Assembly: GCA_043807585.1 (NCBI GenBank)
Contig: JAZDFV010000013.1
Location: 2,039 to 66,038 of the forward strand
Direction: 5' to 3'
Length of the DNA: 64,000 nt
Source of the DNA: Candidatus Jorgensenbacteria bacterium
Lineage (GTDB): Bacteria; Patescibacteriota; Minisyncoccia; UBA6257; GWB1-50-10
Below the pieces are notes generated by a model that saw only the letters and a program-made list of their open reading frames with translations, did no database searches and had not been told where the DNA came from. Below are positions 16,527 to 60,516 of the stretch, piece after piece (position 1 is the first letter of the stretch; each line of letters begins with the position of its first letter). Position numbers and translations under genes: made by a program.

Positions 16527-16528
16527 TT

Positions 16529-16562
16529 GTCCTTTATACCCACGATCGTGGGTATAAAGGAC
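16529..16562. promoter_or_regulatory. Perfect 34-nt palindrome (gtcctttatacccaCGATCGtgggtataaaggac) upstream of PaaX-like gene 1; putative operator
   Basis: Immediately followed by 'tatact' -10-like box and the gene start 20 nt downstream. Near-identical imperfect copy lies downstream at 17234-17267. Confidence 0.55.
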
Positions 16563-16581
16563 ATGTGCTATACTGGGATGG

Positions 16582-17223
16582 ATGGAATGTGAGAAAAACA
16601 CGAAGGTGGGAGAGCGGCCACGAAGAGCGAAAGGCGATATTCTCCTGCGGGTGTTGGAGAGGGTAGCGGAGGGTGCCGGAGATGCTGCCGCCATGTTTGG
16701 AGCTTTTTTGTCGGCTGGGTATGGCGCCTCGTATGGAAAACTGGAGCGAGAGCTCGCGCGGGAGCATGCAGGGAGGGAAGCAGCCGCGCAGGCGGTGCGG
16801 CTTGAAAGAGAAGCCAGGCGCAAATATCGGAAATTGTTCTACCTCCTCAAAAAGGACGGGCTTGTGGAGGAGAAGAAAAAAGCTCACAACAATATTTTTC
16901 TTCTCACCAGGCGGGGGGTGGCAAAACTCGCGGAGCTCCGCAAGCGGAAACTGCAGCTATTGCCTCGTCGGGTGTATGAGCCGGAGCGGGCGGACGTGTT
17001 CACTATTGTGACGTTTGATGTTCCGGAGAGAGATAGAAAAAAGCGAGAATGGCTTCGGGAAACATTGAGATCTCTGGGATTTGATTTTGTGCAAAGGAGC
17101 GTTTGGATAGGGAAGGTAAAGCTTCCGAAAGAGTTTTTGGAGGACATACAGCACCTAAACCTTATTGATTCTGTTGAGATTTTTCAGATTACAAAGACTG
17201 GCAGCTTGAAACACCTTATGTAA
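16582..17223 (+). CDS. PaaX-family protein: winged-HTH plus Cas2/VapD-like fold domain (paralog 1)
   Basis: 'YTIVTFDVPERDRKKREWLRETLRSLGFDFVQRSVWIGKV' fits the Cas2/VapD-like beta-alpha pattern seen in the PaaX C-terminal domain. N-terminal wHTH. Paralogs at 30449..30937 and 53202..53786. Confidence 0.6.
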   Translation: MECEKNTKVGERPRRAKGDILLRVLERVAEGAGDAAAMFGAFLSAGYGASYGKLERELAREHAGREAAAQAVRLEREARRKYRKLFYLLKKDGLVEEKKKAHNNIFLLTRRGVAKLAELRKRKLQLLPRRVYEPERADVFTIVTFDVPERDRKKREWLRETLRSLGFDFVQRSVWIGKVKLPKEFLEDIQHLNLIDSVEIFQITKTGSLKHLM

Positions 17224-17233
17224 TGTGTGGAAT

Positions 17234-17267
17234 GTCTTTTATACAGACGATCGTCTACATAAAGGAC
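17234..17267. repeat. Imperfect 34-nt palindrome downstream of PaaX-like gene 1 (cognate of 16529-16562)
   Basis: gtcttttatacagaCGATCGtctacataaaggac. Confidence 0.55.
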
Positions 17268-17354
17268 AAACCATGTGCTGGGAGATGTGAATGGTAAAAC
17301 GATGAGAGAACGAAAGCGGTTGAGTGTTGCGTTTGACGCACGCGCACTCTCTAG

Positions 17355-17417
17355 TCAGGGTTCCCTTGCCTCGTCGCAGATGAGCTTCGGTTCCTCGTCG
17401 CGCCAAGAGAGGCGCCC
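17355..17417 (-). repeat. Copy of the dnaE 3' end; 49 nt (17369-17417) identical to 55571-55619; encodes variant C-terminus '...EEPKLICDEAREP*'
   Basis: Direct orientation relative to dnaE (coding on minus strand) with its own in-frame stop. Confidence 0.75.
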
Positions 17418-17533
17418 CGAGACATTCCACTCGTATCTTGGTCTCCTGAAGCATGGGAACGCGCGCAGGTTGAAACGGCGCGCGCGGTATTTGTGTTATA
17501 ATTTTTCTGTACCAATGGATCCTCATTTTTAAA

Positions 17534-33705: not shown

Positions 33706-34030
33706 AGTGATGGGATACACATAAGCCCCCCACTAAACAGGTTTTAATGTCCTCCTGCAGGGGACTGCGCCCGTGCGCCCAAACGACTTGCTAGGCCGGC
33801 TGTCTCTGATGGAAGTTCACCCCGTTGGATGCGAGAGCTATCTAACGGGGTGAACCTCACACATAACTCCTTATGTGTGGGGTGAACAACTTGTTGATAA
33901 GTCGGACGGGAAAATTTTTGAAACGTAGGTAAATAAACGATTTTCTTCTCCGTCCGCCGGCATCCGCCGACGGGCGGATTATTTTTGACAGAGTGGGAGA
34001 GTGGTGTATCTTAGTAGGGAAGTGGGGAAT

Positions 34031-34071: not shown

Positions 34072-34198
34072 TCCCGATTTTGCCCGATCCGCCAGCTGGC
34101 GGAGAGGTTACAAAATCGAGGACCCAGCACATAAGACATTTTGCTATGCATATTTCAAAGGAACAAAAACTGACCGTTTTTCGAAAGAACCTTATGTG

Positions 34199-34267
34199 CT
34201 GGGTGCTCAATTCCGTAGATAAATTTTTTTCGTCGACCGACTCAAAAATTTATACGTAATTGGCATG
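34199..34267 (+). promoter_or_regulatory. Conserved ~68-nt leader / translation-start element (copy upstream of mraZ)
   Basis: ctgggtgctcaattccgtagataaatttttttcgtcgaccgactcaaaaatttatacgtaattggcATG. Preceded by IR arms 34123-34135 / 34191-34203. Confidence 0.6.
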
Positions 34268-34696
34268 TTACTTGGAGAATACAGGCACAGCGTAGACCCG
34301 AAGGGACGAATCGCCATCCCCGCAAAGTTTCGCGGGAAGGTGGGGAGCGGCGCCATCATCACGCGGGGCTTGGACCACTGTCTTTTCGTATTCGGCGCCA
34401 AGGAGTGGGAGGCGCTTGCGGCAAAACTCACCGCGCTCCCCTTGGCCCAGGCGAATTCTCGCGCCTTTGCCCGCCTCATGCTTGCCGGTGCTTCCGATGT
34501 GGAGCTCGACACGCAGGGGCGGATTTTAATTCCTGACTACCTCCGCACCTACGCCGGCATCACGAAGCAGGCGGTGGTGGCGGGCGTGATGAACCGCATG
34601 GAGATTTGGGACGAGAAGGCGTGGGATAGCTATAAGGCGAAGACGGAATCCTCGTCGGACGAGATCGCGGAACAGTTGGGGGCGTTGGGGATTTAA
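34265..34696 (+). CDS. mraZ: Transcriptional regulator MraZ
   Basis: 'MLLGEYRHSVDPKGRIAIPAKFR' with duplicated MraZ/SpoVT-AbrB motifs. Confidence 0.85.
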   Translation: MLLGEYRHSVDPKGRIAIPAKFRGKVGSGAIITRGLDHCLFVFGAKEWEALAAKLTALPLAQANSRAFARLMLAGASDVELDTQGRILIPDYLRTYAGITKQAVVAGVMNRMEIWDEKAWDSYKAKTESSSDEIAEQLGALGI

Positions 34697-34846
34697 TGAC
34701 TATGACAATAACCATGACAATGAAGATAACCACGACTAATGACTATGACCAACTATGACTAATGACTATGACTAATGACCATGACTTATAACAAAGCGCA
34801 CGGTTCATAAGCAGGAGCTGTCATCGTCATACGTCATCGTCATTAG
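34696..34846. repeat. (ATGACN)n hexanucleotide array with complementary (GTCATC)n arm, forming a long spacer hairpin
   Basis: atgactatgacaataaccatgacaatga... then ...tgtcatcgtcatacgtcatcgtcat. Confidence 0.75.
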
Positions 34847-35788: not shown

Positions 35789-35925
35789 AGCCGTTGCGGC
35801 GAAGAAATTATGGCTTGCAAACCTTACCGAGCACATAAAAGTATGAAAACATCAACCAATCTTAAAGTAATTGCTTCTCGATTGAACGATTTGTACCAAG
35901 AAAGTCGCTTGGTTACTTTTATGTG

Positions 35926-35994
35926 CTGGGTGCGCGATTCTGTAGACGAATTTTCTTCGCCTGCTGACTCGAAAATTCGTACATAATCGGCATG
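35926..35994 (+). promoter_or_regulatory. Conserved ~68-nt leader / translation-start element (copy upstream of ftsL-like gene)
   Basis: ctgggtgcgcgattctgtagacgaattttcttcgcctgctgactcgaaaattcgtacataatcggcATG. Preceded by IR arms 35829-35843 / 35914-35929. Confidence 0.6.
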
Positions 35995-39297: not shown

Positions 39298-39369
39298 GGC
39301 CCCATCGTCTAATGGCCAGGACACGTGGTTCTCATCCACGAAATAGGAGTCCGATTCTCCTTGGGGCTA
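39298..39369 (+). tRNA. tRNA-Glu (anticodon CTC)
   Basis: Acceptor ggcccca/tggggct, anticodon stem-loop cgtgg-ttCTCat-ccacg, T-arm aggag-tccgatt-ctcct. Followed by an A-run / T-run hairpin. Confidence 0.75.
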
Positions 39370-39542
39370 CAAAAAATCAAAGAAGCGGGCTTGTCCTGCT
39401 TTTTTGATTTTTGCCCCAAAACGAAGCGCCTGCGCGCTTTGTGTGGAGAATCGGACGTCGGAGCGATGTGCCGCGAGTACGCGGCACCGCGAGGCGGTGC
39501 CCAGGCCGAGGAGCGCGACGGCGCGACGAGAGGCGAGGGCGA

Positions 39543-39562
39543 TCTCTCCTTGGGGCTGCAAC
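39543..39562 (+). repeat. Partial direct duplicate of the tRNA-Glu 3' end (ctctccttggggct)
   Basis: Matches tRNA positions ~57-71. Lies ~190 nt downstream of the tRNA and immediately before a solo palindrome. Confidence 0.55.
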
Positions 39563-39592
39563 GTACAATTGGCAGAGACCCGCCATGAGGTT

Positions 39593-39625
39593 GTTAACAA
39601 ATTACACGGCCGTGTAATTTGTTAA
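39593..39625. repeat. Solo copy of the palindrome gttaacaaattacacGGCCgtgtaatttgttaa
   Basis: Identical to the left palindrome of the PaaX-like gene 2 locus (30375-30408), but no PaaX-like gene is adjacent. Confidence 0.7.
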
Positions 39626-42128: not shown

Positions 42129-45100
42129 ATGCCCGAAGACAAGAAAACCCCGTCATACAGCGCCAAGGACATCTATGTTTTGGAGGGGCTCCAGCCGGTG
42201 CGGAAGCGCCCCGGGATGTACATTGGTTCCACTGGCGTGGACGGTTTGCATCACCTCATCTGGGAGGTTGTGGACAATTCCATCGACGAGGCGATGGCCG
42301 GTTATGCCAAGAACATCGCGGTGGAGATCAAAAAGGGGAGCCGCATCGCCGTCACCGACGACGGCCGCGGAATCCCGGTGGACTTGCATGCCCAGACCAA
42401 GAAATCGGCCCTGGAGACCGTGATGACCACGCTCCACGCGGGGGGCAAGTTCGGCGGCGAATCCTATAAGGTCTCCGGCGGCCTGCACGGCGTGGGGGTC
42501 TCGGTGGTGTGCGCCCTCTCGCAGTGGATGCGGGCGGAGGTTTGCCGCGACGGAATGCGCTATGTACAGGAGTATGAGCGGGGCCGGCCGAAGTTCTCGG
42601 TGAGGAAGGAGGGGAAGTGCGGGCGGAACGGAACCAAGGTGATATTCGACCCGGACCCCGAGATATTTCAGAAAATAGAATTTGACCTCAAGAAGGTGCT
42701 GGACCACCTCCGCCAGCAGGCGTACCTCACCAAAGGGGTGCGTATCGAGCTCCTCGATGAGCGTGGCCTGTCTGCGCAGGCAGGAGAGGCGCCGCTCCGC
42801 TACGGGTTCTGCTTTGGGGGCGGGCTCCAGTCCTACATCCGCTACCTCGTGGGCGACACCAAGACCATCCAGGATCACCCGTTCTACACGCACCGCGAGG
42901 TGGAGGGGGTTGATGTGGAAGCCACCTTCGTCTATGCGGACGATATGGAGAACGAGGAGATAAGCTTTGCGAATAACATCTATACCCCCGACGGCGGCAT
43001 GCACCTCACTGGTTTCAGGTCAGCTCTTACCCGCACCCTGAACGACTACGCGCGGCGGGAGGGCTACCTCAAGGAATCGGAGGAGAACCTCACCGGGGAC
43101 GACGTGCGCGAAGGGCTCATCGCCGCCGTGTCCATCAAGATCCGCGAGCCTCAGTTCGAGGGGCAGACGAAAGCGCGGCTGGGGAACACGGAGGCGCGCA
43201 CCGCCGTGGAGGCGGCCGTGGCGGAGGGCTTGAAAGAATTCCTAGAACGCTACGGAGCGGACGCGCGGGTCATCCTGGAGAGGAATCTCCTCGCGGCGAA
43301 GGCGCGCAAGGCCGCGAAGGCCGCGAAGGACACCGTGCTTCGGAAAGGGGCCCTGGAGGGCCTCACCTTGCCGGGCAAATTGGCCGATTGCAGCTCGCGC
43401 AAGGCGGAGGAATCGGAACTCTTCATAGTTGAGGGCGATTCCGCAGGCGGCTGCTTTTTTGGAAAAACTGAGGTCGCATTAATGGATGGCAGAAATTTAT
43501 CTTTTGAAAAAATAGTTGAAGAACATAGTCAAGGCAAAAAAAATTATTGCTATACAATTAAAAATGATGGTAGCGTTGGTGTCGAGTTAATAAAAAATCC
43601 AAGGAAAACAAAACAAAATGCAGAAGTTATTAAAGTTATTTTAGACAATGATGAAGAAATAATCTGTACTCCGGACCATAAATTCGTATTGAGAGACGGA
43701 GGATATAAAATGGCGAAAGATTTAAAACCGGAAGATTCTTTGATGCCATTACATAAAAAACTTTCAAAAATAGAAGAGCGAATAACAATTGAAGGATACG
43801 AAATGGTTTTGAATCCGCGAAATTTAAAATGGATTTTTACTCATTTGTTATCTGATAAATATAATCTTGAAAACGGCATCTATTCAGAAATCGGCGGTTG
43901 TAATAAACATCACGTTGATTTTAATAAATTAAATAACAATCCGGATAATATAATAAGGATGACCAGAGAAGAACATTTTGAGTATCATAGAAAAATGATA
44001 GAATTTGGGTTGCACAGAGAAGATATAAAGGAAAAATCTAAAAAAGCTCACAGGACAAAAGAATATAGGGAAAAAGTGAGTCAAATTATGGGTACTCCCG
44101 AAATGAGAGTGATGCTGAGCGAAAGAGCTAAAAAGCAGTGGCAGAGCGCAGAATACAAGAATTTTATGGTCGGGAAATTCCTCGAATTCTACAGGAATAA
44201 TTCAGAGTACCGAGAGAAAAATAATAAGCTTTTAGATAAGGTCCAGAAAGAATATTGGGCAAGCGGGGAAAATAAAAAGAAGCAGGCTGAAAGGGTTAAA
44301 AAATATTTTGAATTGCATCCGGAAAAACGAAAGGAACTTTCAACGCTCGCACGAACGCAGTGGCAAAATGAAAATTTGCGCCAGTGGCGCTCGGAACGAA
44401 CCAAAAAACAGTGGTCGCCCGAATTTCGGAAAAATCGGAAAATCGCATATAACGAAACATATCTCGCGAAAGCAATGCGGGTATTACGCAATTTTTATGA
44501 ATACACCGGCGAAGTTTCCGTTGAAAAATACAACGCTTTCCGCCGGCAAACGAACGACAAATCACTACTGCGATTTGATACGATTGTCAGCAGGTTTTTC
44601 GGCGGCGAAAGGGAGCGTCTCGTTGATGCCGTAATTCACTACAACCATAAAATAGTCCGTATTGAAGCGGTATTGGAAAAGATGGATGTGTACGACCTTG
44701 AAGTGCCCGGTACCCATAACTTCGCTTTGGCCTCGGGTGTTTTCGTTCATAACAGCGCGAAGCAGGGCCGCGACCGCCGGTTCCAGGCCATTCTGCCTCT
44801 GAAAGGGAAGATCCTGAACGTAGAAAAGGCGCGCATCGACAAGATGCTCGCGAACAAGGAGATACGTTCCCTCGTGATAGCGCTGGGAACGGCCATCGCC
44901 GAAAATTTCGATCTCTCAAAGCTCCGCTACGGGAAGGTCATCCTTATGACCGATGCCGACGTGGACGGCGCCCACATCCGGACGCTCCTCCTTACCCTCT
45001 TCTACCGCTACTTCCCGCAGATCATTGAACACGGGCACCTCTACATCGCCCAGCCGCCGCTCTTTCGCCTCCAGCGGGGGAAGGAGGTGCGCTACGCGTG

Positions 45101-45365
45101 GAGCGATGCCGAGCGCGACAAGGTGACAAAGGCGCTGGGCGGCGATAGCGTCGGCATCCAGCGCTACAAGGGGCTTGGGGAGATGAACCCCACCCAACTC
45201 TGGGAGACGACACTTGACCCCGCGACGCGGGTTTTGAAGCAGGTCATGGTGGAGGATGCTGTGGAAGCGGATCACCTCTTTGACATCCTCATGGGTGAGG
45301 CTGTGGAGCCGCGGAAGAATTTCATCCAGGCACACGCGGTCATGGTGAAGAACCTTGACATTTAA
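42129..45365 (+). CDS. gyrB: DNA gyrase subunit B, interrupted by an in-frame intein
   Basis: GHKL ATPase and Toprim motifs ('EGDSAGG | [24 protein letters not shown]'). 644-aa extein plus 434-aa intein. Confidence 0.9.
   Translation: [1078 protein letters not shown]
43452..44753 (+). mobile_element. Class 1 intein with HNH-type homing endonuclease domain inserted in the GyrB Toprim motif
   Basis: Starts with Cys after 'GDSAGG'. Block B 'TPDHKF'. Ends 'VFVHN' followed by Ser+1. Central '[30 protein letters not shown]' HNH motif (43899-43988) plus repeated QWQ-containing helices. Strongly AT-rich relative to the exteins. Confidence 0.85.
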
Positions 45366-50256: not shown

Positions 50257-52071
50257 TTATTTCCTTTGCGCGATGAGGTCGCTGATGGTTTTGAGGAACG
50301 AGTGGAGCGGAACGGTAGCTGTTTCCTTCTTGTGCCGCTCGCGGACGTTCACCGTTTTCGCACTTTCCTCCTTTTCTCCAACAACAAGGATGTAGGGGAT
50401 CTTTTTAAGCTCTGCGTCGCGGATGCGCTTGCCGAGCGTTTCATTCGCCTCGCTCGTTTCTGTGCGCACGTCGTGCTCTTTAAGCTCCCGCGCCACACGC
50501 TCGGCATAGGCGGCGTACTTTTCGGAGACCGGAAGCACCGTAACCTGCACCGGCGAGAGCCACGCGGGGAGCGCCCCGGCGTAGTGCTCGAGAAGCACCA
50601 TAATGAACCGCTCAGGCGAACCGATGATGGCGCGGTGGATCATGAAAGGCCGCTTCTCCTTGCCGTCCTTGTCGATGTAGGTGAGGCCGAACCGCTGGGG
50701 GAGGAAAGAATCGATCTGTACGGTGGAGAGCTGCCACTCGCGGCCGAGCGCATCGGTCGCCATGAGGTCCATCTTCGGTCCGTAGAACGCGGCCTCTCCT
50801 GGTGCGTCGAAGTAGTCGATGCGGTTGCGCTTCACGATTCGCTCGGCCCACCGTTCGAGCTTGTCCCACGTTTTCGCGTCCCCGATGTACTTTTCGGGGT
50901 GTTTTTTGTCGCGCGTGGAGAGGCGATAGCGATATTTGAACCCGAAGGTTGCCATGACTTTCTTGATCATCCCGAGCGCCAGGTCAATTTCCTCGTCCAC
51001 CTGGTCCTCGCGGCAGAAGATATGGTAGTCGTCCTGCGAGAACGAACGCACTCTAGCGAGGCCGGAGAGCTCACCCGGTTTCTCATCGCGGTAGAGCATC
51101 GCGAAGTCGGAGAGGCGGAGCGGAAGGTCGCGGTAGCTCCGCGGCTGGCTCGCGTAGATCTGGGTGTGTTGGGGGCAGTTCATCGGCTTCAGGAAGAATT
51201 CCTCCTCCGAGTAGTTCGAGACGACCCGGAACATGCTGTCGCGGTACTTGTCGTAGTGGCCGGAGATCTTGAAAAGTTCCGCCTTGGCGATCTGCGGAGT
51301 CCACACCTGCGTGTAGCCGGCCTTCGACTGGAGCGATTCGACGTAGTCGTTGAGGAGCCGGCGGATGAGCGCGCCACTCGGCGTGTAGAGGGGGAGACCT
51401 GCGCCCACGAGGTCCGAAAAGGTGAAGAGGTCGAGTTGCCTGCCGAGTTTTCGGTGGTCGCGCTTTTTCGCTTCTTCCTCGCGCGCGAGGTATTCATCCA
51501 GCTCTTTCTTGGTGGCGAAGGCGAGACCGTAGATGCGGGTGAGCATCGGGTTTTTCTCGCTCCCGCGCCAGTACGCGCCCGCGAGGTGGGTGAGCTTGAA
51601 GGCGTCAGCCGGAATTTCTTTGGTATTTTTCACGTGACCGCCGCGGCATAAATCATAAAACGCGGATTCACGCGGATTAAAAGCGGATTTACGCTGATTT
51701 TTATCTCCAGTGATATAGATGGAAATTGGTTGTTTTGCTTTCACTAGTTCTTTGATGAGTTCCAACTTGAAGGTTTGTCCCCTAAACAGTTTTCCCGCTT
51801 CCACGGGCGTCACCTTCTTTCCCGAAAAGGGGAGGTTTTGCGCGATGAGAGCGCGCATCGCCTTTTCCAGCTTCGGCAAATCGGTGTCGGTTATTCGTGT
51901 AGATTCGTGGCCGGATTCGTGTTTATTCGTGAATTGGAAGTCGTAGTAAAATCCATTCTCAATGACCGGCCCGATGCCCAGTTTCGCTTTAGGGAACTCT
52001 TTCAGAACGGCAGCAGCCAGAAGATGAGCTAACGAATGCCGAATATGGTCGAGATTTTGGGCTTTTGGCAT
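50257..52071 (-). CDS. thrS: Threonyl-tRNA synthetase
   Basis: 'HIRHSLAHLLA' editing-domain motif, class II core, C-terminal anticodon-binding domain. Confidence 0.9.
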   Translation of the reverse strand: MPKAQNLDHIRHSLAHLLAAAVLKEFPKAKLGIGPVIENGFYYDFQFTNKHESGHESTRITDTDLPKLEKAMRALIAQNLPFSGKKVTPVEAGKLFRGQTFKLELIKELVKAKQPISIYITGDKNQRKSAFNPRESAFYDLCRGGHVKNTKEIPADAFKLTHLAGAYWRGSEKNPMLTRIYGLAFATKKELDEYLAREEEAKKRDHRKLGRQLDLFTFSDLVGAGLPLYTPSGALIRRLLNDYVESLQSKAGYTQVWTPQIAKAELFKISGHYDKYRDSMFRVVSNYSEEEFFLKPMNCPQHTQIYASQPRSYRDLPLRLSDFAMLYRDEKPGELSGLARVRSFSQDDYHIFCREDQVDEEIDLALGMIKKVMATFGFKYRYRLSTRDKKHPEKYIGDAKTWDKLERWAERIVKRNRIDYFDAPGEAAFYGPKMDLMATDALGREWQLSTVQIDSFLPQRFGLTYIDKDGKEKRPFMIHRAIIGSPERFIMVLLEHYAGALPAWLSPVQVTVLPVSEKYAAYAERVARELKEHDVRTETSEANETLGKRIRDAELKKIPYILVVGEKEESAKTVNVRERHKKETATVPLHSFLKTISDLIAQRK

Positions 52072-53032
52072 ATGCTTTTATTATAGACAAATCCTTGTGT
52101 TTGGGGGATATTGACAACTTTACTATAATATGCTATGTTTTACGTAGCATATTACCAGATTTCCGTACCTCACGCCCCACCAATTCTGGTGGAAGGGGAA
52201 AGGAACATACTCGGTGAATGCAACGGAGGATTTATGTTTCTCGTATATTATCTGGCATCTGCCATGGTAACCATCGGTCTTTTCCTCGTCGTAGATCTTT
52301 TGACGGGACGTAGGGGACTCAATTGGTTAGTTCTGCACATCTATTCTTTTCGACGCCCCCGTGTGCTCGTGTGCACAGTAAATGGTGTCACCGGTGTGGT
52401 GACGCGACGGGACTACGAGCGCGCCATGCGCAAATCTCGTCTGGGGAACGCATCTAACGTTCCCTCGAAGCCGCCCCGCCTGTTAGTCGACCAGACCTTT
52501 CTTTTCAAAGAAGGAGGAGCTGGAGTAAATGAATTCAATGTCACTGGGGATTTGTTTGAACTTGAGGCCTTTCTCGCGGGGTGCATAGTTGAGCGAGGGG
52601 AGTTTGTAATTGTAATCCGGGAGTTTGTAATCCCAAGCGATCTCCACCGCACGGACAATCTCCAATCTTCGCACAGTTTCTGGTACGACTACATCTATGT
52701 GCATAGTCTTGCGCCCTATCGAGCAGGGGTTTCCGTGAGTGAGGATGGGAAAGGAAGGAGGGTTCTTTCAGTGGCTAGAGGCGAAGGCAAGATGTTCACG
52801 CTCGTTGTGCCCCCGCCAACTAGCGTATCCACTTTGCATTGAAGTTTCATCAAGCTCAAGGCTCGATCACAATGATCGAGCCTTTTGCGTTTCTAAAATT
52901 AATTCAAAGAGACTTCTGTGTTTAAATTCCCTCGATTGTACCAAAGGACTGGTCGACATTTTCTGTTACCAAGATTTAACGAGCGAATTGAAGATATTTT
53001 CGTACGGGGCAGGTTGATGAAAAAGGTGAAAT

Positions 53033-53100
53033 CTAAGGTTCCGTCACCTCGTCGCGGATGAGCTTCGACTCGTCTTTTACGGCCTCCCGGCGGCGATACT
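53033..53100 (-). repeat. Degenerate displaced dnaE 3'-end remnant (encodes '...ESKLIRDEVTEP*')
   Basis: cacctcgtcgcggatgagcttcgactcg; direct orientation with dnaE; own stop codon. Confidence 0.6.
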
Positions 53101-53114
53101 TCGTTTCTTTCCTA

Positions 53115-53156
53115 CTCTTTTCCCCTACACCTCCGGCCGTTCACATAGGAGAAGAG
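53115..53156. promoter_or_regulatory. Imperfect palindrome centred on CGGCCG upstream of PaaX-like gene 3, followed by -10 'tataat'; putative operator
   Basis: ctcttttcccctacacctCCGGCCGttcacataggagaagag. Cognate copy downstream at 53807-53844. Confidence 0.5.
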
Positions 53157-53201
53157 TATAATAAAAGCGTGCGTTGAAAGAAGAAGTGTAAGTGCCAAGT
53201 T

Positions 53202-53786
53202 ATGAGAGGCGATATTGTATTGAAGGTATTGGGAATAGCGGGAGAAGGAGTTGCTACTCTTTCCGATCTTTTCTGCGCTTTTCTTGAGGCGGGATACGGG
53301 GCTTCGTATGGGAGGTTGGAGTATCAGCTGCGAGAACGGCGCGGAGAGTGCGCGCGAGCAAAAGATGTGCGCGATGCACGCGGACGGTTTCAGAAACTAC
53401 TCTACAAGTTGAAGAAAGACGGTCTTATCGCGGCCGGGGATGGTCGTGCCGCGGGGCGTTTTTCTGTCACAAAAAAGGGGAGGAGTAAGCTTGCCAAACT
53501 TTTGGAGCGGCGGAAGCGAATGTTGCCTCCTGCAAGGTACGCGGCAAAACCCGCCAATGTGTATACTATCGTAGCGTTTGATGTGTCCGAGAAAGAGCGG
53601 AAGAAGCGCGCGTGGCTGCGTGAGGTACTTCGGAACCTCGGCTTTAATCGTGTCCAGCAAAGCGTCTGGATCGGGAAAGTAAAGATACCGGAGCAGTTCT
53701 TGAGAGACCTGGAACGGTTGGAAATCGTTCACGCGGTTGAAATTTTCGAGATTACCAAAACTGGAAGTCTTCACCACCTTGTGTAA
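53202..53786 (+). CDS. PaaX-family protein: winged-HTH plus Cas2/VapD-like fold domain (paralog 3)
   Basis: 'YTIVAFDVSEKERKKRAWLREVLRNLGFNRVQQSVWIGKV'. N-terminus 'LEAGYGASYGRLEYQL' shared with paralog 1. Confidence 0.6.
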   Translation: MRGDIVLKVLGIAGEGVATLSDLFCAFLEAGYGASYGRLEYQLRERRGECARAKDVRDARGRFQKLLYKLKKDGLIAAGDGRAAGRFSVTKKGRSKLAKLLERRKRMLPPARYAAKPANVYTIVAFDVSEKERKKRAWLREVLRNLGFNRVQQSVWIGKVKIPEQFLRDLERLEIVHAVEIFEITKTGSLHHLV

Positions 53787-53806
53787 TACGTGATGGTTGT
53801 TTGCAG

Positions 53807-53844
53807 TTTTCTCCTACACCAACGGCCGTCGACATAGGAGAAAA
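53807..53844. repeat. Imperfect palindrome (ttttctcctacaccaACGGCCGTcgacataggagaaaa) downstream of PaaX-like gene 3
   Basis: ~85% identical to 53115-53156. Confidence 0.5.
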
Positions 53845-53874
53845 TTGGGAAAGTGGGGAAAGTGAAGGGAGGGT

Positions 53875-53925
53875 TTACAATTCTTTCACCTCATCGCAGA
53901 TGAGCTTCGGCTCGGTGGAGATTTG
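53875..53925 (-). repeat. Displaced dnaE 3'-end remnant (encodes '...TEPKLICDEVKEL*')
   Basis: cacctcatcgcagatgagcttcggctcgg; direct orientation; own TAA stop. Abuts the 3' end of the TPR-membrane gene. Confidence 0.65.
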
Positions 53926-55473
53926 TCATTTGATCCTCAGTTTTTCGATTGCCGGAAGAAATTTCGGGTCGAGCTGTTTTGCGGCTTCCCAATACTTTCT
54001 TGCGCTCTGCATATCGCCGGCGTTTTCGTAGTTGTTTCCGAGGTTATAGACGGGAATTGGGTTTTGCGGGTTCAGCGCGATGGCATGCTCATAAGCATCG
54101 TGCGCTTTCGGGATATCTCCCTTGTCCTCGTAGGCCATCCCCAGATTATTCCAGACGCGCAAACTGGTCGGAGCGTATTTCAGGGTTTGTTCGTAGAAAC
54201 CTATCGGGTCCCGCCAGTCGGCGTTCCTCAAAACGGTTCTCACCCCGAGGGAGATGAACCAAATCGCCAATAGTCCGCCCGCGGTCCACCTCATCCAATC
54301 TTTTGTCCACGCCGCCCCCATTATCTCCGCGATTCCCGTTCCGGCAAAGATGGACAACCCGACTATCGGCGCGTACAGGTAATGTTCGAACATGATGCCG
54401 GCCACGGGAGCGAGAATGCCCGACGCCGGCAGGATGGCAGCGGCGAAGAAAAGCGTCCCGAAAAGATATCCCTTCCTCTCCTTGAATCGGGCGATGGAGA
54501 AGAGAAGCATTATGAGCGCGATGATCACTCCGGCCAGCGCATAAGGATTGAATAGCGAGGTTACGACGAGAATGTTTTCCGTTCGCTCCATGAAGAGCGT
54601 TATGGGGGAGAAAAACAGCGAAATGTATTGCGGCAGGATCGAAAAGAAGGTGGAAGTTCTCACCATCATGCTCGTCGTATAGACATTTTCGGCGTGGTAG
54701 ATGTTGAACGTGTTTTGAAAATTGAGCACCGTGCCGCGGAGCGCAAGATAGAGGGCGGCGATGAGAACGAACGGCAGGAGCGCCAACGCCGCGTTCTTGC
54801 ACCAGTCCCGGAAACGCTCCACATGCGGACGGACCAGCCGAAGCCAGAGTTCCAGGAGGACGAGCAGGGCGGGGAATACGACCGCCCGCTCCTTGGAGAG
54901 AAGCGCGAGGATGAAACAGAGCGCCGCGACGCCGTAAGAAAGCATGGCTCCCCGGTTCTGGTATTTTGCCCTGAAGCGCATATAGGCAGCGATGCCCAAC
55001 AGCGTGAAGAGAAGGGAGAGCGGATCCCCGAGGCCCGTGACGTAGGTCACCGCTTCTGTTTGGAGCGGGTGGATGAGAAAAATGAGCGCGGTGAAGAACG
55101 GCACCGCGCGCCGCGCGAGCAATTTTGATAGGAGCAGAAAGACCAAAACGGCGTTCGCGAAATGGACCAGGAAATTCACCGCGTGATAGCCAGGCGCCGA
55201 TGCACCCCACAGTTTCCATTCGATGGAGTACACCGTGAGGAGAACCGGGCGCCAGTAGTCGCTCATGAAGCCCGCGCCCTCTATCATGTTTCCGGAGAAG
55301 AATTTTCCGATCTCGAAATTATGGACATACGCATTGTTCAGGATGACGTCGTTGTCGTCCCAGAACATTTTGTTGTTGAGGGTATTGGCATAGACCGCTA
55401 TGCCGGCGATGAAAAGAACCGCCACGGCGGCGGTGGTGGTGCGTGTAACGACGAATTGCCGAAGAGCGTGCAT
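53926..55473 (-). CDS. Polytopic membrane protein with C-terminal TPR repeats (TMTC/PMT_2-like putative glycosyltransferase)
   Basis: ~11 TM segments, then TPR 'AYEDKGDIPKAHDAYEHAIALNPQNPIPVYNLGNNYENAGD'. Confidence 0.6.
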   Translation of the reverse strand: MHALRQFVVTRTTTAAVAVLFIAGIAVYANTLNNKMFWDDNDVILNNAYVHNFEIGKFFSGNMIEGAGFMSDYWRPVLLTVYSIEWKLWGASAPGYHAVNFLVHFANAVLVFLLLSKLLARRAVPFFTALIFLIHPLQTEAVTYVTGLGDPLSLLFTLLGIAAYMRFRAKYQNRGAMLSYGVAALCFILALLSKERAVVFPALLVLLELWLRLVRPHVERFRDWCKNAALALLPFVLIAALYLALRGTVLNFQNTFNIYHAENVYTTSMMVRTSTFFSILPQYISLFFSPITLFMERTENILVVTSLFNPYALAGVIIALIMLLFSIARFKERKGYLFGTLFFAAAILPASGILAPVAGIMFEHYLYAPIVGLSIFAGTGIAEIMGAAWTKDWMRWTAGGLLAIWFISLGVRTVLRNADWRDPIGFYEQTLKYAPTSLRVWNNLGMAYEDKGDIPKAHDAYEHAIALNPQNPIPVYNLGNNYENAGDMQSARKYWEAAKQLDPKFLPAIEKLRIK

Positions 55474-55556
55474 AATGCGGAATTACTGCGCCGGTTACCG
55501 TTCTCTCGCTCTATTATTCTCTTGCATTCACAGTTCCCGGACCTCGTCCTATTGAG

Positions 55557-58500
55557 CTAAAGCTCACGGACCTCGTCGCAGATGAGCTTCGGTTCCTCGT
55601 CGCGCCAAGAGAGGCGCCCGGAGACCATCACCGCCTTGTTCTCCTGCCACACCAAGGGGTGCTTCGTGAGCGTGTCCGAAAAGACAAGCACTTCCAGGTT
55701 GTCAGAGAGATCTTCAAGCGTCACAAAGAGCATGGGTTGCCCCTTCTTCGTGGTGATGCGCTGGATGCCCGAGATGATGCCGGCAAGGCGCAACCGCGGG
55801 CCGCTGCCGTTCCCGTTCGGGACCTGGGGGAGTTTCGCCACCTCCCTCAAGGGTTTCACCTCTTTTCCGATCTTCGAGAGGTAGGCGTTCCATGGGTGGT
55901 CGGTGAGGTAGAGGCCGAGGAGTTCTTTCTCCCACATGAGCATGAGCGACTTGTCCGCCGGCGTGCCAGGGCGGAGGCGCACAGAGGCAAGGGAAACGCC
56001 GCCGCCAAAGAGGCAGTGCTGGTTTGAAGCGGCAAGTTTTTTCGCGCTTTGGTTGAATCGGATGAGATCGTCGATGCTGTCCAGAACCTGGCCGCGCTCC
56101 ACACCCAAGGAATCGAACGCCCCGCACTTTATCAAACTTTCCAGCGACTTCTTGTTCATATCGCGGTGCTGGATGCGGCGGAGGAAATCGGAGAGGTCTG
56201 CGAAGGGGCCGCCGCGCATCCGTTCCTCAATGACGGCATGGACGATGTTCGCGCCGAGGTTCTTCACGGCGAGGAGTCCGAAGTGAATATTTGAGCCATC
56301 CATTGTGAAATCCTCCGCGGAGGCATTCACGTCCGGCGGGAGCACTTTAATGCCGAGCCGCTTCGCTTCGCCGACGAGGAAGGTGATTCGTTCAATGTCG
56401 CCGGAGGAGATATTGAACAAGCTCGTCATAAATTCCCCCGGGTAGCGCGTTTTGAGGTAGGCGGTCTGGTAGCTTATCATCGCGTAGCACGCGGCGTGCG
56501 AGCGGTTGAAGCCATAGCGGGCGAACGGCGGGAAGAGTTCCCAGATGGCATCGGCGGTCTTGGGCGGGATGCCGTGGGCTGTCATGCCATTGATGAGCCT
56601 CTCCTTCTGCTCGTTGAGGAGCGATTTTATCTTTTTCCCGATGGCCTTGCGGAGCGTGTCGGCTTCGGCGAGCGTGAACCCCGCGAGGTCGCGCGCGATC
56701 CGCATCATCTGCTCCTGGTAAATGCCGACGCCGTAGGTATTTTTCAAAATCGGTTCAAGGCGCGGGTGGAGGTAGGTAATTTGCTCCTTCCCGAATTTGC
56801 GCTTGATGTAGTGGGGGATGAGCTCTATCGGCCCCGGGCGGTAGAGCGCGATCATCGCGATAATGTCCTCAAGGGTCGTAGGTTTTAGCTCCTTGAGGTA
56901 CCGTGTCATGCCGGCGCCCTCCAGCTGGAAGACGCCGGTGGTCTCGCCTTTCAGGAGAAGCTTAAAGGTGTCCGCATTGTCCAAGGGAATGGCGTCAATG
57001 TTTATGTCCTCGCCGTGGAGTTCGCGCACGAGGCGGAGCGTCTTTTCAATGACTGTGAGGTTCTTGAGACCCAAGAAATCCATCTTGAGGAGCCCGAGGT
57101 CCTCCACACAGTAGAAGTCGAACTGGGTGATAATAGTGTCCTCTCCCTGCGGCGCGCGCTGGAGGGGGAGAAAATGCACGAGCGGTTCAGGAGATATAAC
57201 AACTCCGCATGCGTGCACGGATGCGTGTCTTGCAACGCCTTCAAGTTTTTTTGCGGAATCAATAAGGTGTTTCGCCTCAAGGTCTTTTTCGTAAATATCT
57301 TTTAGCTCCTTAACATTTTTAAGGCACTCATCTAGCCAGCCTTCTTTCATTCCCTGCGTCGGGTTAAACGGTATGAGTTTCGCTATTGTGTCGCAGAACG
57401 CATATGACATTCCGAGCGCGCGACCAGCATCGCGGATGGCGGCTTTCGCGGCCATTGTTCCGAATGTGATGATCTGCGCCACCCGGTCCTTCCCGTATTT
57501 GTCGCGCACGTACGCTACCACTTCGTCGCGGCGCGTGTCGGTGAAATCAATATCAATGTCGGGCACCTGGATGCGGTCGGGGTTCAGGAAGCGTTCAAAG
57601 AGGAGATCGTACTTCAGGGGATCCACGTTCGTGATGCCGAGGATGTAGGAAACGATGCTCCCGGCGGCCGAGCCGCGGCCGGGGCCCACCACGATGCCAT
57701 GCGTCTTGGCCCAGTGGATGAAGTCCTGGACTATCAAAAAGTAGTCGGCGAAACCGGTCTTTTTGATTACCCCAAGCTCGTGGGTAATGCGTTCCCCAAC
57801 TTCCTTCGTGGCGTCCGGATAGCGCCCGGCGGTGCGCTCGCGCACGAGGGAGATGAGGTATTCGTCGGCGGATGTGCCGTCGGGCACCGTGAAGCGGGGG
57901 AGCTTTATTTTTCCGAGCTCGAGCGAGAAAGTGCATTGCTCCGCGATGGCGAGCGTGGAGGCGACCGCCTCGGGAAATTCCTTGAACGATTCCGCCATTG
58001 CGTCGGGGCTCCGCATAGAGACGTCGTAGCGCTTGAGGGAGAGGCGGTCCTCGTCATCCAGCTTGCTGTTGGTCTGCACCGCAAGGAGGATCTCGTGGGC
58101 GGTCTTGTCGTCCTCGCGCACGTAGTGGATGTCCTGGGTGCCCACGAGCGGTATGCCGAGCTTTTTTCCGAGTCCCGCCAAGGCGTGATGGAGTTCCGGG
58201 GTGTGCGGCTGGATCTCCAGATAGAAATCTCCGCCGAAGACGGAACGGTACCACGCGGCGATCTCTTCCGCCTCCGCGAACTTTTTTGCGGCGAGGAGCT
58301 TTGCGATCTCTCCCGAGTAGCAACCCGAGAGACAAATGAGCCCCTCGTGGTGCCGCTCGAGGAGCTCTCGGTCGATGCGCGGTTTGTAGTAGAACCCCTC
58401 AAGGTGCGATGCGGTGACGAGCGCGATGAGATTTTGCCACCCCGCGGCGTTTTTCGCGAGGAGGGTGAGGTGATAGCGCACCTCGTCGATCCTCGGGCGC

Positions 58501-58733
58501 TTTGAGAGGCGGCCGTTCGGGGCGAGGTATGCCTCCACGCCGAGGATGGGTTTTATGCCGGCCACTTTCGCTTTCTTATAGAACTCCACGGCACCGTAGA
58601 GGTTGCCGTGGTCGGTCAGGGCGAGCGCGTCCATCCCCAGTTCCTTCGTCCGCGTGATGAGGTCGTCGATTTTCGCGAGGCCGTCCAGGAGGGAATAGTG
58701 GGAGTGGGTGTGGAGGTGGACGAATTTTGACAT
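55557..58733 (-). CDS. dnaE: DNA polymerase III subunit alpha
   Basis: PHP domain from 'MSKFVHLHTHSHYSLLDG', polymerase core, OB-fold C-terminus '...EEPKLICDEVREL*'. Start set at the Met at 58733; upstream in-frame extension judged spurious. Confidence 0.9.
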   Translation of the reverse strand: MSKFVHLHTHSHYSLLDGLAKIDDLITRTKELGMDALALTDHGNLYGAVEFYKKAKVAGIKPILGVEAYLAPNGRLSKRPRIDEVRYHLTLLAKNAAGWQNLIALVTASHLEGFYYKPRIDRELLERHHEGLICLSGCYSGEIAKLLAAKKFAEAEEIAAWYRSVFGGDFYLEIQPHTPELHHALAGLGKKLGIPLVGTQDIHYVREDDKTAHEILLAVQTNSKLDDEDRLSLKRYDVSMRSPDAMAESFKEFPEAVASTLAIAEQCTFSLELGKIKLPRFTVPDGTSADEYLISLVRERTAGRYPDATKEVGERITHELGVIKKTGFADYFLIVQDFIHWAKTHGIVVGPGRGSAAGSIVSYILGITNVDPLKYDLLFERFLNPDRIQVPDIDIDFTDTRRDEVVAYVRDKYGKDRVAQIITFGTMAAKAAIRDAGRALGMSYAFCDTIAKLIPFNPTQGMKEGWLDECLKNVKELKDIYEKDLEAKHLIDSAKKLEGVARHASVHACGVVISPEPLVHFLPLQRAPQGEDTIITQFDFYCVEDLGLLKMDFLGLKNLTVIEKTLRLVRELHGEDINIDAIPLDNADTFKLLLKGETTGVFQLEGAGMTRYLKELKPTTLEDIIAMIALYRPGPIELIPHYIKRKFGKEQITYLHPRLEPILKNTYGVGIYQEQMMRIARDLAGFTLAEADTLRKAIGKKIKSLLNEQKERLINGMTAHGIPPKTADAIWELFPPFARYGFNRSHAACYAMISYQTAYLKTRYPGEFMTSLFNISSGDIERITFLVGEAKRLGIKVLPPDVNASAEDFTMDGSNIHFGLLAVKNLGANIVHAVIEERMRGGPFADLSDFLRRIQHRDMNKKSLESLIKCGAFDSLGVERGQVLDSIDDLIRFNQSAKKLAASNQHCLFGGGVSLASVRLRPGTPADKSLMLMWEKELLGLYLTDHPWNAYLSKIGKEVKPLREVAKLPQVPNGNGSGPRLRLAGIISGIQRITTKKGQPMLFVTLEDLSDNLEVLVFSDTLTKHPLVWQENKAVMVSGRLSWRDEEPKLICDEVREL

Positions 58734-58817
58734 GGGCTCTTGGTTCGTTTCTATTCTACGGCGGGTTATAATTTCTACAAGGTGCAAAAAACGAGAAAAA
58801 GTGGTGATATAAGAGAA

Positions 58818-59462
58818 ATGAGGATAATGCCTGTGGTGGGTATAGACGAGGTAGGGCGGGGGCCGCTTGCGGGGCCTGTCACGGTGGCGGCGGTAACGGC
58901 ATCCGCGCGGTTTTGGCGTTCGGCAAGGCGTTTTAATGTGCCGCTTCGGGATTCCAAGCGACTCTCGGCGCGCCAGCGCGAGGCGTGGCTCCGGCACGTG
59001 CGGGCAGAAACGGCTCACGGCACCGTCCGTTATGCTTTGGCGAACGTATACCCAAAGACCATTGACCGGGTGAATATCACGCAGGCGGCGAATCTTGCCG
59101 CCACGCGCGCATTTGCGCGTCTCGTGACACGCCACAATCTTCCTCTCGCGCGTACCAAAGTGCTTTTGGACGGCGGTTTGTATCTCCGTGAATCCGCGCT
59201 TTTTAAGCTTGGCTACGGGCGCACCCCAAAAACGATAGTGAAAGGCGACGAACGTCTTCCGGCGATCATGCTTGCTTCCATCGTCGCAAAGGTAACGCGC
59301 GATAGGGCGATGAGGCGACTCCATCGCCGGTTTCCGGTGTATGGATTTGACGAACACAAAGGGTACGGCACCAAGCGGCATGTGCGCGCCCTCAAAAAAC
59401 ACGGCGTGAGTAAAGCACATAGATTGACATTCGTTCATGTGCACCATACAATGAAAGGGTAA
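58818..59462 (+). CDS. rnhB: Ribonuclease HII
   Basis: 'GIDEVGRGPLAGPV' active-site motif. Confidence 0.8.
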   Translation: MRIMPVVGIDEVGRGPLAGPVTVAAVTASARFWRSARRFNVPLRDSKRLSARQREAWLRHVRAETAHGTVRYALANVYPKTIDRVNITQAANLAATRAFARLVTRHNLPLARTKVLLDGGLYLRESALFKLGYGRTPKTIVKGDERLPAIMLASIVAKVTRDRAMRRLHRRFPVYGFDEHKGYGTKRHVRALKKHGVSKAHRLTFVHVHHTMKG

Positions 59463-59740: not shown

Positions 59741-59961
59741 AGTTTGAACGTGTTCCGTCACCTCGCACCTTCCAACCCTTCCTCATTCTACCCCGCACCA
59801 TTTCCATTCATGATGAACGATAACACAACACGGTTAGAGCGAGTTCGCCTTTCGGCTCTGATGGAGCACCGGCAGAATTCCTGCCAGAAATGGTACGGGG
59901 TGCTCGTTTTTGCGGCTAAATTTCCGGCGCGTGCTCGCTTGGAAATTTAGATAAAAACGGC

Positions 59962-60390
59962 ATGGCCACCCGGCACCTTATCAGGACCATCGTGCTCCAA
60001 TCCCTCTATGAATGGGATTTTTACAAACACGAAAGCGATTTGGAAAAGATCATGGAGCGGAACCTCAAGGAGTTCGGGCCTGGGATCGATGAGCCGGAGT
60101 TCGCGTGGCGCATCGCAAAGGGGATCGTGGAACATCTCCCGGAGATCGACGGCATCATCGGAAAGGCGGCCCCCGAATGGCCGGTGGAACAGATCGCCAT
60201 CATTGACCGGAACGTCCTGCGCATCGGGCTCTACGAGTTGCTCTACGCCAACAAAGAAGAGGTGCCCCCCAAAGTGGCCATCAATGAGGCAATTGAGGTT
60301 GCAAAGAGCTATGGCGGGTTGAACTCGCCGAAGTTCGTGAATGGCGTCCTCGGGACCGTGTACCGCGAAATGGTGGCGCCGAAGGAATAA
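59962..60390 (+). CDS. nusB: Transcription antitermination factor NusB
   Basis: All-helical 142 aa; '[13 protein letters not shown]...'. Confidence 0.8.
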
Positions 60391-60516
60391 CTATGACCAT
60401 GACAATGACCATGACAATGACCATGACAATGACTATGACAATGAGAAACGATTACCATAACCATGACAAGGATTTTCTGACGTCATCGTCATCGTCATCG
60501 TTATTGTTATCGTAAT
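60391..60516. repeat. (ATGACN)n hexanucleotide array with complementary (GTCATC)n arm; spacer hairpin between nusB and rnc
   Basis: ctatgaccatgacaatgaccatgacaatgaccatgacaatgactatgacaatga ... cgtcatcgtcatcgtcatcgttattgttatcg. Confidence 0.75.

Follow-up and report, generated by a model that had tools for sequence, protein, structure and literature searches.

Introduction

Why should the end of a replicative polymerase gene occur several times over beside one intact copy of the gene? The question is raised by dnaE, the gene for DNA polymerase III alpha, in a 64-kb stretch of DNA (called the window throughout) with a GC content of 54%, from a metagenome-assembled genome of Candidatus Jorgensenbacteria. 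We find in-frame copies of the dnaE 3' end downstream of the gene with small single-gene units between them, and related genomes in which the same site is empty. In one relative the sequences show that the working end of dnaE has been replaced and the native one displaced, and the same architecture is found at a second gene, tatD. Our analysis suggests, with moderate confidence, that the dnaE end is a recurrent insertion site which units carrying their own dnaE end enter by Campbell-type recombination.

Copies of the dnaE end

The target gene is an intact open reading frame (ORF) of 1296 amino acids on the minus strand (55557..59447), with the Pfam domains PHP, DNA_pol3_alpha, DNA_pol3_finger, HHH_6 and OB-fold. 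Its product ends in EEPKLICDEVREL, with the stop codon at 55557-55559, so that the authentic end lies at 55557, where an earlier note on this DNA had placed it. With up to three mismatches allowed, the 20-mer GAAGCTCATCTGCGACGAGG matches four times in the window, on the minus strand only, at 55571-90 (no mismatch), 53889-908 (one), 53047-66 (one) and 17369-88 (none); in 100 dinucleotide-preserving shuffles it was not found (0/100). These are the four minus-strand copies, each with its own in-frame stop, that the earlier note had listed, and their positions and translations hold: every copy translates in frame to a stop codon.

The current working end (55557..55592, minus strand; PKLICDEVREL and stop) consists of a 23-nt core (55570-55592) and 13 nt that include the stop (55557-55569). 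Copy c2 (53875..53913, minus strand) starts 12 nt after the stop of a TPR gene described below and reads PKLICDEVKEL and stop (53875-53910); c3 (53033..53077, minus strand) reads (DE)SKLIRDEVTEP and stop, with SKLIRDEVTEP and stop at 53033-53068, and is the most decayed of the copies; c4 lies far off at 17.4 kb. When the segments are aligned, as the earlier note had proposed, the core of c2 agrees with the real end at 22/23 positions, that of c3 at 21/23 and that of c4 at 22/23, while just 5-7 of the 13 nt past the core are identical, stop included. The same holds among the window copies, which share 20-22/23 in the core and then switch abruptly to unrelated tails (5-8/13). A fifth, partial copy, the mini-copy (55528..55548, minus strand, GACGAGGTCCGGGAACTGTGA), read from the sequence, starts 8 nt past the true dnaE stop and repeats the last seven codons, DEVREL and stop, in 21 nt.

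Two units lie within the array. Unit A, between the working end and c2, is the TPR gene (53926..55473, minus strand, co-directional with dnaE), which encodes a 515-aa membrane protein with C-terminal repeats of the Pfam TPR families. Its PDB matches are confined to the TPR part; of the earlier label, a TPR-membrane glycosyltransferase-like gene, the TPR membrane protein stands, but the glycosyltransferase was not confirmed. Unit B, found between c2 and c3 as the note had it, is a PaaX-like gene bracketed by a pair of palindromes of 34-44 nt each, together called cassette 3. The gene (PaaX-like gene 3, 53202..53786, plus strand) encodes 194 aa with matches to Pfam PaaX_M (4e-13) and CRISPR_Cas2 (7e-7). 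The downstream palindrome lies at 53804..53847, centred on ACGGCCGT, and its copy on the promoter side at 53120..53153, with a TATAAT following at 53157-53162.

Beyond c3, which is probably the original dnaE end, come about 150 nt and then a hairpin terminator (52858-52884) that serves a convergent ORF of 235 aa (52135..52842, plus strand). ORF and terminator form the native right flank of the insertion site, and thrS (50257-52071, minus strand) stands next to them. A small ORF divergent from thrS is found at the equivalent position in six of the related loci that we designate by L-numbers (L001, L002, L004, L006, L009 and L078).

Empty and occupied sites in related genomes

The DnaE C-terminus was used to scan one genome per species, which gave 73 loci; no DnaE relative above 75% identity was found. 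Among the 25 closest relatives the gene order dnaE-thrS-miaA-gatB-L11-nusG is the rule. The empty site that the earlier note had expected, with dnaE followed directly by thrS, is present in L014 (gap of 4 nt), L019 (overlap), L024 (89 nt), L007 (200 nt) and L010 (310 nt), so that the two genes stand within 0-310 nt of each other. Across species the dnaE-thrS spacer ranges from 0 to 2.3 kb and holds differing, unrelated small ORFs.

A profile of the PaaX-like proteins places a cassette at the dnaE end in only two of the 73 species representatives, L003 and L005; protein look-ups added two further dnaE-adjacent cassettes, in L001 and L002. At this one site, then, the window and L001 have a cassette of type 3, L002 and L005 one of type 1 and L003 one of type 2, three subfamilies in all. 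A protein-level scan for copies of the tail covered 25 closer relatives, with L003 cut by its contig end. Twenty-one of the 25 have a single dnaE end, all of them without a cassette beside dnaE, and extra ends were found only in the window, L001, L002 and L005. Wherever both flanks are readable and a copy is detectable, that is, in these same four genomes, the displaced end lies on the far side of the cassette. The layout in the positive cases is dnaE with its working end, a short spacer, a palindrome, a convergent PaaX-like gene, a second palindrome and the displaced end; beyond it, in the window, L001 and L002, come a terminator and a small convergent ORF, with thrS beyond. Flank-to-flank alignments across the cassette score above the maximum of the shuffles in the window (43 against 21 for cassette 3), in L001 (27 against 23) and in L005 (28 against 23). 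A degenerate pattern of the core, AAGCTCATCYGCGAYGAGG, was also tried on metagenomes and set aside; among the matches listed was an unrelated KLIRDEGPK-coding gene of unrelated bacteria.

In L001 and L003 no TPR gene separates dnaE from the PaaX-like gene, and because the PaaX-like cassette there follows dnaE directly, the TPR gene appears, judged from gene order, to be a separate unit, whether by separate insertion or by deletion. Homologues of it stand between dnaE and thrS in L018 (53% identical over 513 aa) and L017, and the TPR gene may be an old resident of the dnaE-thrS slot rather than a recent islet.

Replacement of the end

Do the extra ends come from copying in place, or was the end of dnaE exchanged? 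The clearest comparison is that of L005 with L006, a sister without a PaaX-like cassette. Their dnaE genes are 82.7% identical over the last kb, and the 40 nt upstream of the core agree at 37/40 positions. Past the core, however, the L005 working end matches the L006 working end at only 5/13 positions, whereas the displaced end of L005 matches it at 13/13. Since it is the displaced end and not the working one that matches the sister, the sequences show that the L005 end was replaced rather than duplicated in place, and that L005 has kept its native end as the displaced one. The two ends of L001, working end and remnant, are unlike at 12/36 nt and yet encode the same peptide. A neutral relic cannot stay fixed while the live copy saturates its synonymous sites, which argues that the two L001 ends are of different origin. 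Cassette-side ends use AT-richer codons, which agrees with a cassette GC of 47-52% against 58% for dnaE. We reject an in-place target-site duplication, given that the ends differ at synonymous sites only and that the displaced end equals the sister's working end.

A more general form of the same idea dispenses with mobile DNA altogether: the copies would have arisen by local duplication, slippage or gene conversion, and the intervening genes would be ordinary residents of the spacer. The variable spacer with its species-specific small ORFs fits such a picture, the mini-copy 8 nt past the stop could well be a slippage product, and the four window cores are near-identical (20-22/23), as gene conversion would leave them. 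Yet variable spacers that lack a PaaX-like cassette never hold a displaced end, and in-place duplication does not predict synonymous differences with the peptide kept, nor a displaced end that is the sister's working end. The same architecture at tatD, described below, also speaks against it, and we consider this explanation very unlikely.

The distant copy

The orphan copy c4 (17355..17448, minus strand) is a dnaE 3' fragment of about 94 nt that ends in VSGRLSWRDEEPKLICDEAREP and stop, with PKLICDEAREP and stop at 17355-17390. It is identical to dnaE at 54/55 positions over 17369-17423; after a scrambled, frame-breaking patch of 13 nt the homology restarts upstream at CAGGAGAcCAAG (17437-17448). 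It is nearer to the dnaE of this genome than to that of any relative, with a different post-core tail, and is flanked on both sides by non-dnaE sequence. Its position is 82 nt past the downstream palindrome of a second PaaX-like cassette, cassette 1 (16528..17273, plus strand), which has its gene at 16582-17223 (213 aa; Pfam PaaX_M 5e-14) and palindromes at 16528-16563 and 17228-17273, and whose closest matches are the dnaE-adjacent cassettes of L002 and L005.

The earlier note had counted c4 among tandem islets integrated at the dnaE 3' end. This holds for the local array from 55592 to 53033 but not for the copy at 17.4 kb, because the 38 kb from c4 to dnaE are filled with core genes in conserved synteny: hrcA, dnaK, dnaJ, L10, L7/L12, mraZ, rsmH, ftsI and a Mur ligase, and further gyrB, nusG, L11, gatB, miaA and thrS. 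On the same ground we reject a 38-kb island that would run from c4 to the real end, and c4 is not the far boundary of an island. It is best read, from its sequence and position, as a relic of a former junction between dnaE and cassette 1: a piece like a left junction, dnaE end plus cassette-side sequence, that would have remained attached to cassette 1 and been parted from dnaE by chromosomal rearrangement or by a secondary movement of the cassette. In L008, dnaE adjoins the same block, from dnaJ to 17534, whose other end bears c4 in the window; there the block dnaJ-dnaK-hrcA follows dnaE instead of thrS (L008 2594-9716), with the dnaJ stop 19 nt past the dnaE stop. In L020 (9053-16338) dnaE is followed by 7 kb of other genes and then by L12 and L10, and thrS is not next. 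The 5' flank of dnaE (nusB, RNase III, SMC) is conserved in both, and since only the 3' flanks change, the 3' end of dnaE is a breakpoint of synteny and rearrangement.

Might all this be an artefact of metagenome assembly, in which strain alleles were concatenated at a shared repeat? The window does come from a metagenome-assembled genome, and the contigs of three relatives (L002, L003 and L005) break at or near their cassettes. But in the local array (real end, c2, c3) no exact repeat exceeds about 17-20 nt, which is shorter than assembler k-mers; c4 alone has a longer stretch of exact identity with dnaE, inside its 54/55 match, and c4 has non-dnaE sequence on either side. Moreover, the layout of end, cassette and remnant is found in four independent assemblies, and the tatD case in three. 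We regard an artefact as extremely improbable.

The same cassette family at other genes

In Liptonbacteria (L212-L214, three independent assemblies from JGI, ENA and NCBI) a PaaX-like cassette stands convergent to tatD (L212 3290-4250). Past the cassette's promoter-side palindrome lies a remnant of the tatD end, about 84 nt long and in frame, which ends in KLAEIKNVQVEEMAGGIFENARRIFNIR and stop as compared with KLAEIKGVSTEQMKQSILENAKRIFSIYI and stop, and when the two flanks are aligned the score is 37, with 22 as the highest value among the shuffles. Altogether, flank duplication is seen in 5/14 PaaX-like cassettes examined.

Cassettes of this family are also found near tRNA genes. In two distant lineages (L082-L084 3882-5828; L207 3059-4813) a PaaX-like cassette comes after a gene for an Xer-like tyrosine recombinase of about 300 aa; its downstream palindrome directly adjoins the 3' end of a convergent tRNA-Leu(tag), and two conserved hypothetical genes of about 420-440 and 182-184 aa come next. 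A tRNA-Leu remnant past the Xer-like gene was not found in L082 or L207. In L208 (4780-5036) the 26 nt at the 5' end of a tRNA-Ser(gga) are repeated upstream of the gene, and its 3' half is repeated downstream; a 13/15 match to the end of the Ham1 gene, found after the neighbouring PaaX-like cassette, did not exceed shuffles, and we set it aside as non-significant.

Within the window, a tRNA-Glu gene (39298-39370) is followed 170 nt on by a partial copy of its own 3' end (39540-39560, CGATCTCTCCTTGGGGCTGCA); an inverted fragment of its T-arm lies at 39445-39456. A further 33 nt past the partial copy stands a solo copy (39594-39625, 95% identical) of the palindrome of the window's remaining cassette, cassette 2. 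The whole of 39298-39625 looks, from its sequence, like another integration scar at a gene 3' end.

The PaaX-like cassettes

What kind of protein do these cassettes encode? Cassette 2 (30373-31017), like the others, has its own palindrome pair, and its gene matches PaaX_M at 1e-17. The PaaX-like proteins, 162-213 aa long, end after a Cas2-like domain and are without the C-terminal domain of PaaX. They score 20-22 bits on TIGR02277, the PaaX equivalog model, below its cut-off of 264.55. On TIGR01573 (Cas2) scores of 35 and 28 bits exceed the cut-off of 24.5, with a match that spans only model positions 2-43 of 96. In 19 homologues the N-terminus keeps, without exception, the aspartate-containing motif FD[IV]PE of the Cas2 type. 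The AlphaFold model of PaaX-like protein 3 (pLDDT 80) predicts a PadR-like winged helix and a Cas2-like ferredoxin domain, and a fold search with it returned E. coli PaaX (8a39) as the best PDB match, then PadR regulators and Cas2, all weakly (best E 6e-3). A transposase of the HUH/Y1 type, which IS200/IS605 elements combine with subterminal hairpins, or a recombinase fold was not found in that search. The family comprises at least 258 homologues and is routinely misnamed 'CRISPR-associated Cas2'; no Cas1 domain was found in the scanned window ORFs, no CRISPR-like array among the window's repeat families, and no paa genes near the PaaX-like genes. Searches for PaaX-like genes on mobile replicons gave no match in phage records, one weak match in IMG/VR and one distant Streptomyces match among plasmids. 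The cassette flanks have no match in Rfam, and a literature search brought up nothing relevant on PaaX in Patescibacteria, on Cas2-like proteins with palindromes or on integration at the dnaE end.

The palindromic sites at the promoter would suit an autoregulated dimeric repressor. Most likely the protein is an autoregulated DNA-binding protein that acts on the palindromes bracketing its own gene, and it would then be cargo or a regulator more probably than a catalyst.

A bolder proposal is that the cassettes are autonomous, the winged-helix and Cas2-like protein acting on its bracketing palindromes to promote 3'-end insertion by itself, with no integrase. All displaced ends except that of the TPR unit adjoin such a cassette, at two target genes; the cassettes, at about 0.8 kb, hold just the PaaX-like gene and its palindromes; the aspartate of the FD[IV]PE motif is invariant; the arms of the palindromes surround a central CGATCG or CGGCCG, as in recombinase core sites; and the palindrome at 39594-39625 stands alone. 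On the other hand, the weak fold matches are to PaaX, PadR and Cas2, with no likeness to a recombinase or HUH nuclease, and the upstream palindrome overlaps the -10 region or stands immediately in front of it, a position expected of an operator. Nor does the TPR unit, bounded by dnaE ends, contain a PaaX-like gene, most of the cassettes examined (9/14) lack the duplication, and phage and plasmid records hold no copies beyond the single weak IMG/VR match. Autonomy in this sense seems to us quite unlikely.

A related suggestion, which we put forward as a doubtful one, is that the palindrome-bracketed PaaX-like genes are an unrecognised class of minimal mobile cassette in Parcubacteria that inserts without an integrase of its own. 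Each cassette would, with as slight a probability, bring new versions of the final 12-28 codons of one particular essential or housekeeping gene, dnaE or tatD, and either its own protein would act on the palindromes or host recombination would be exploited, again at long odds. If this were true, a cassette on the move would drag pieces of its target with it, and c4 would be such an orphan fragment.

Another sequence accompanies two of the cassettes. A GC-rich element of about 165-175 nt occurs in two copies, 16364-16527 and 31027-31200 on the plus strand, which adjoin, at a distance of 0-10 nt, the promoter-side palindromes of cassettes 1 and 2. The copies are about 90% identical in shared blocks and differ by hairpin-sized indels and by compensatory changes in the terminal stem. 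Its predicted folding is stable (z = -4.2), and Rfam has no matching family; by analogy with c4, the two copies could represent a small RNA gene and a piece of that gene which travelled with a cassette.

Proposed mode of insertion

How could single-gene units come to lie behind a gene that stays intact and ends in a new sequence? We propose, with the same moderate confidence as above, that the last 12-15 or so codons of dnaE form a recurrent insertion site in this group of Parcubacteria. Small DNA units, each bearing its own copy of the dnaE end, would enter by a single crossover of the Campbell type. After insertion dnaE would run into the end borne by the unit and so stay intact, while the previous end and its terminator would be pushed downstream as a dead remnant. 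In the window, c3 would then be the oldest end, still standing before the terminator shared with the convergent ORF. Copy c2 would have arrived with PaaX-like cassette 3, and the current end and the mini-copy would go with the TPR-gene unit; alternatively, a remnant may have been present behind the TPR gene before cassette 3 arrived and have served as its site of integration. For c2 the assignment can be made more closely: past the core it is homologous to the working dnaE end of L001 (9/13), and the spacers of the two are homologous as well (TAAAC..TTCACT.TTTCCC), so that c2 appears to be the end that travels with cassette type 3.

Since the units encode no recombinase, recombination would have to be supplied in trans, either by an unlinked site-specific recombinase or by the host's homologous recombination, acting on the short stretch that the ends share. 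One dedicated integrase is unlikely, because dnaE and tatD share no core and the copies in three genomes agree at only 17-19/23 positions; the same two facts keep homology-driven recombination in play. Two other routes were considered and dropped. Homology-facilitated illegitimate recombination is rejected on logic, as it replaces resident DNA and does not duplicate; and for integration of the Xer/dif type near a replication terminus, the GC skew of the window is uniformly positive, with no switch.

A number of observations weigh against the proposal of recurrent insertion and deserve to be set out together. The cognate integrase or recombinase for which the earlier note had proposed a search is encoded neither in the inserted units nor elsewhere among the roughly 60 ORFs of the 64-kb window, and the variable regions downstream of dnaE in four relatives encode no integrase either; nor was a circular junction or an excised form seen. 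There is no core sequence common to the dnaE and tatD targets, and in L001, L002 and L005 the two copies share just the 17-19/23 already mentioned, with no long identical attachment core evident. Flank duplication was not found in 9/14 of the cassettes examined, among them the dnaE-adjacent one of L078 and the two that stand between an Xer-like recombinase gene and tRNA-Leu, in an order conserved in two lineages; the cassette family is not uniformly mobile, and cassettes without a duplication are either older or were never inserted in this manner. The TPR homologues of L017 and L018 occupy their slots without any displaced dnaE end. PaaX-like protein 3 is 77% identical to the product of the dnaE-adjacent gene of L001, which falls inside the range of housekeeping orthologues (55-84%), so that cassette 3 may have been inherited vertically. 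The window's working end, with its mini-copy, is homologous to the displaced end of L001 and not to its working end. Finally, while the copies, the empty sites, the exchange of the end and the recurrence at tatD are shown by the sequences, the circular intermediate, the enzyme and the order of events are parts of the scheme that we infer.

The relation to L001 bears directly on the order. The working end of the window agrees with the working end of its closest relative, L003, at 23/23 core and 9/13 post-core positions, and with the displaced end of L001 at 23/23 and 10/13; the composite of end, 8-9 nt and mini-copy is also present in that displaced end. A linear history in which the last unit in lies nearest to dnaE does not fit, because the working end of the window resembles an end that L001 has displaced. 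Thus, of the earlier idea that each islet brought a replacement end and displaced its predecessor, the replacement is borne out by L005 and L006, but a successive order of displacement cannot be read, the L001 homologies being in conflict. The anomaly could reflect integration into an existing remnant, an excision that restored an end, or the import of pre-formed segments.

Import on its own would mean that a pre-formed dnaE 3' part, with cassettes and remnants, came from other lineages by homologous recombination at the dnaE and thrS flanks. L001 is a distant relative (its ThrRS is 57% identical), and still its displaced end is the homologue of the window's working end and mini-copy, while c2 matches its working end; between the two genomes, PaaX-like gene 3 is 79% identical at the nucleotide level, dnaE 72% and thrS 67%. 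Against this, the dnaE 3' region contains no block of raised identity to L001 or L003, and c4, identical at 54/55 positions to the dnaE of this genome, points to a local origin. Campbell-type events would in any case still be needed in some genome, so that import is an addition rather than an alternative, and as an explanation we hold it to be unlikely.

Other features of the window

Several further features of the window are recorded here for completeness. A sequence of about 70 nt occurs in four copies (21998-22067, 34198-34267, 35925-35994 and 59895-59964), 71-83% identical to the reference copy, each of which ends at or within 3 nt of an ATG: those of an hrcA-like gene (22050), mraZ (34265), an ORF (35992) and nusB (59962). 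The repeat may represent a leader or promoter element common to these genes. Short tandem arrays of 12-nt units similar to ATGACCATGACA are present at 14825-14902, 34686-34786 and 60371-60472, at or overlapping the 3' ends of three genes, namely a class II aminoacyl-tRNA synthetase gene ending at 14842, mraZ ending at 34696 and nusB ending at 60390.

At the edge of the window, upstream of mreC, is a reverse transcriptase ORF (25-1059, plus strand; Pfam RVT_1) that reaches 150 bits on a group II intron reverse transcriptase model, under its cut-off, and also matches the RT/DRT models of PADLOC. GyrB (42129-45365, plus strand) contains an intein (Intein_splicing, residues 457-875). GC is low, against 0.54 overall, at 4000-12800 (0.41-0.49) and at 32000-34000 (0.38); the first of these stretches holds diverged paralogous pairs (repeat families D1, D2, D8-D10 and D13; Peptidase_C39-like and NlpC/P60 proteins).

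Discussion

Elements that integrate at the 3' end of an essential gene and bring a new end for it are familiar from tRNA and tmRNA genes and from a few protein genes; they are normally of kilobase scale and bring an integrase. In streptococci, integrative and conjugative elements, integrative mobilizable elements and cis-mobilizable elements (ICE, IME and CIME) accrete at the 3' ends of housekeeping genes in site-specific tandem arrays, and those without integrase or transfer genes are flanked by att sites and thought to be mobilised in trans. Such arrays are not known to occur unless an element with an integrase and defined attL and attR accompanies them or gave rise to them; in our window, by contrast, there is no integrase partner, and the dnaE and tatD targets have no common core.

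The product arrangement itself is that of Campbell insertion as practised in the laboratory, which leaves an intact gene ending in the vector copy, the inserted DNA, and, from the left edge of the cloned homology onward, a truncated 3' remnant continuous with the native sequence downstream. Laboratory integration is driven by RecA and uses hundreds of bp of homology, whereas the segment shared by the dnaE units is about 25-90 nt long and partly diverged, and no natural circular form of them is known.

Other comparisons concern the units. Integron cassettes are likewise single-gene, promoter-poor, equipped with an imperfect palindrome, stacked in tandem and without an internal recombinase. IntI and attI are absent from the window, however, as is a tyrosine recombinase, and the dnaE units have palindromes on both sides and a boundary formed by the end of the target gene rather than by attC. 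The encoded protein resembles E. coli PaaX (8a39) and PadR in having an N-terminal winged helix followed by a Cas2-like ferredoxin domain; it differs from E. coli PaaX in lacking the C-terminal domain and neighbouring paa genes, and in that its gene is always bracketed by two palindromes.

Perhaps the closest parallel is provided by the ssrA islands of Dehalococcoides (McMurdie et al. 2011, PMC3146451), where multiple tandem islands lie downstream of a single-copy essential gene, each bounded by a direct repeat of about 20 bp of the ssrA 3' end, with the gene intact. The number of islands varies by strain, and 15 islands without an integration module were read as cis-mobilizable (PMC3146451). 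The tandem units, the direct repeats of the 3' end and the intact target gene are alike in both systems. But the ssrA islands have an RNA target (tmRNA), are several kb long and mostly carry a module with a serine recombinase, DsiB (PMC3146451), whereas the dnaE units have a coding end as their target, measure 0.8-1.6 kb, contain a single gene and no recombinase, and must preserve a reading frame and a stop.

What sets the present case apart is that a replicative polymerase is targeted, that the units are single-gene ones from below a kilobase to 1.6 kb without a recombinase, and that the C-terminus of DnaE is repeatedly rewritten. The setting is the bacteria of the candidate phyla radiation, whose mobile elements are poorly known. 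Our analysis offers a handle on a family misnamed as 'Cas2', together with a signature that can be screened for, a remnant gene end beyond a palindrome-bracketed gene, and it raises the question of integrase-less cassette movement in organisms with minimal genomes.

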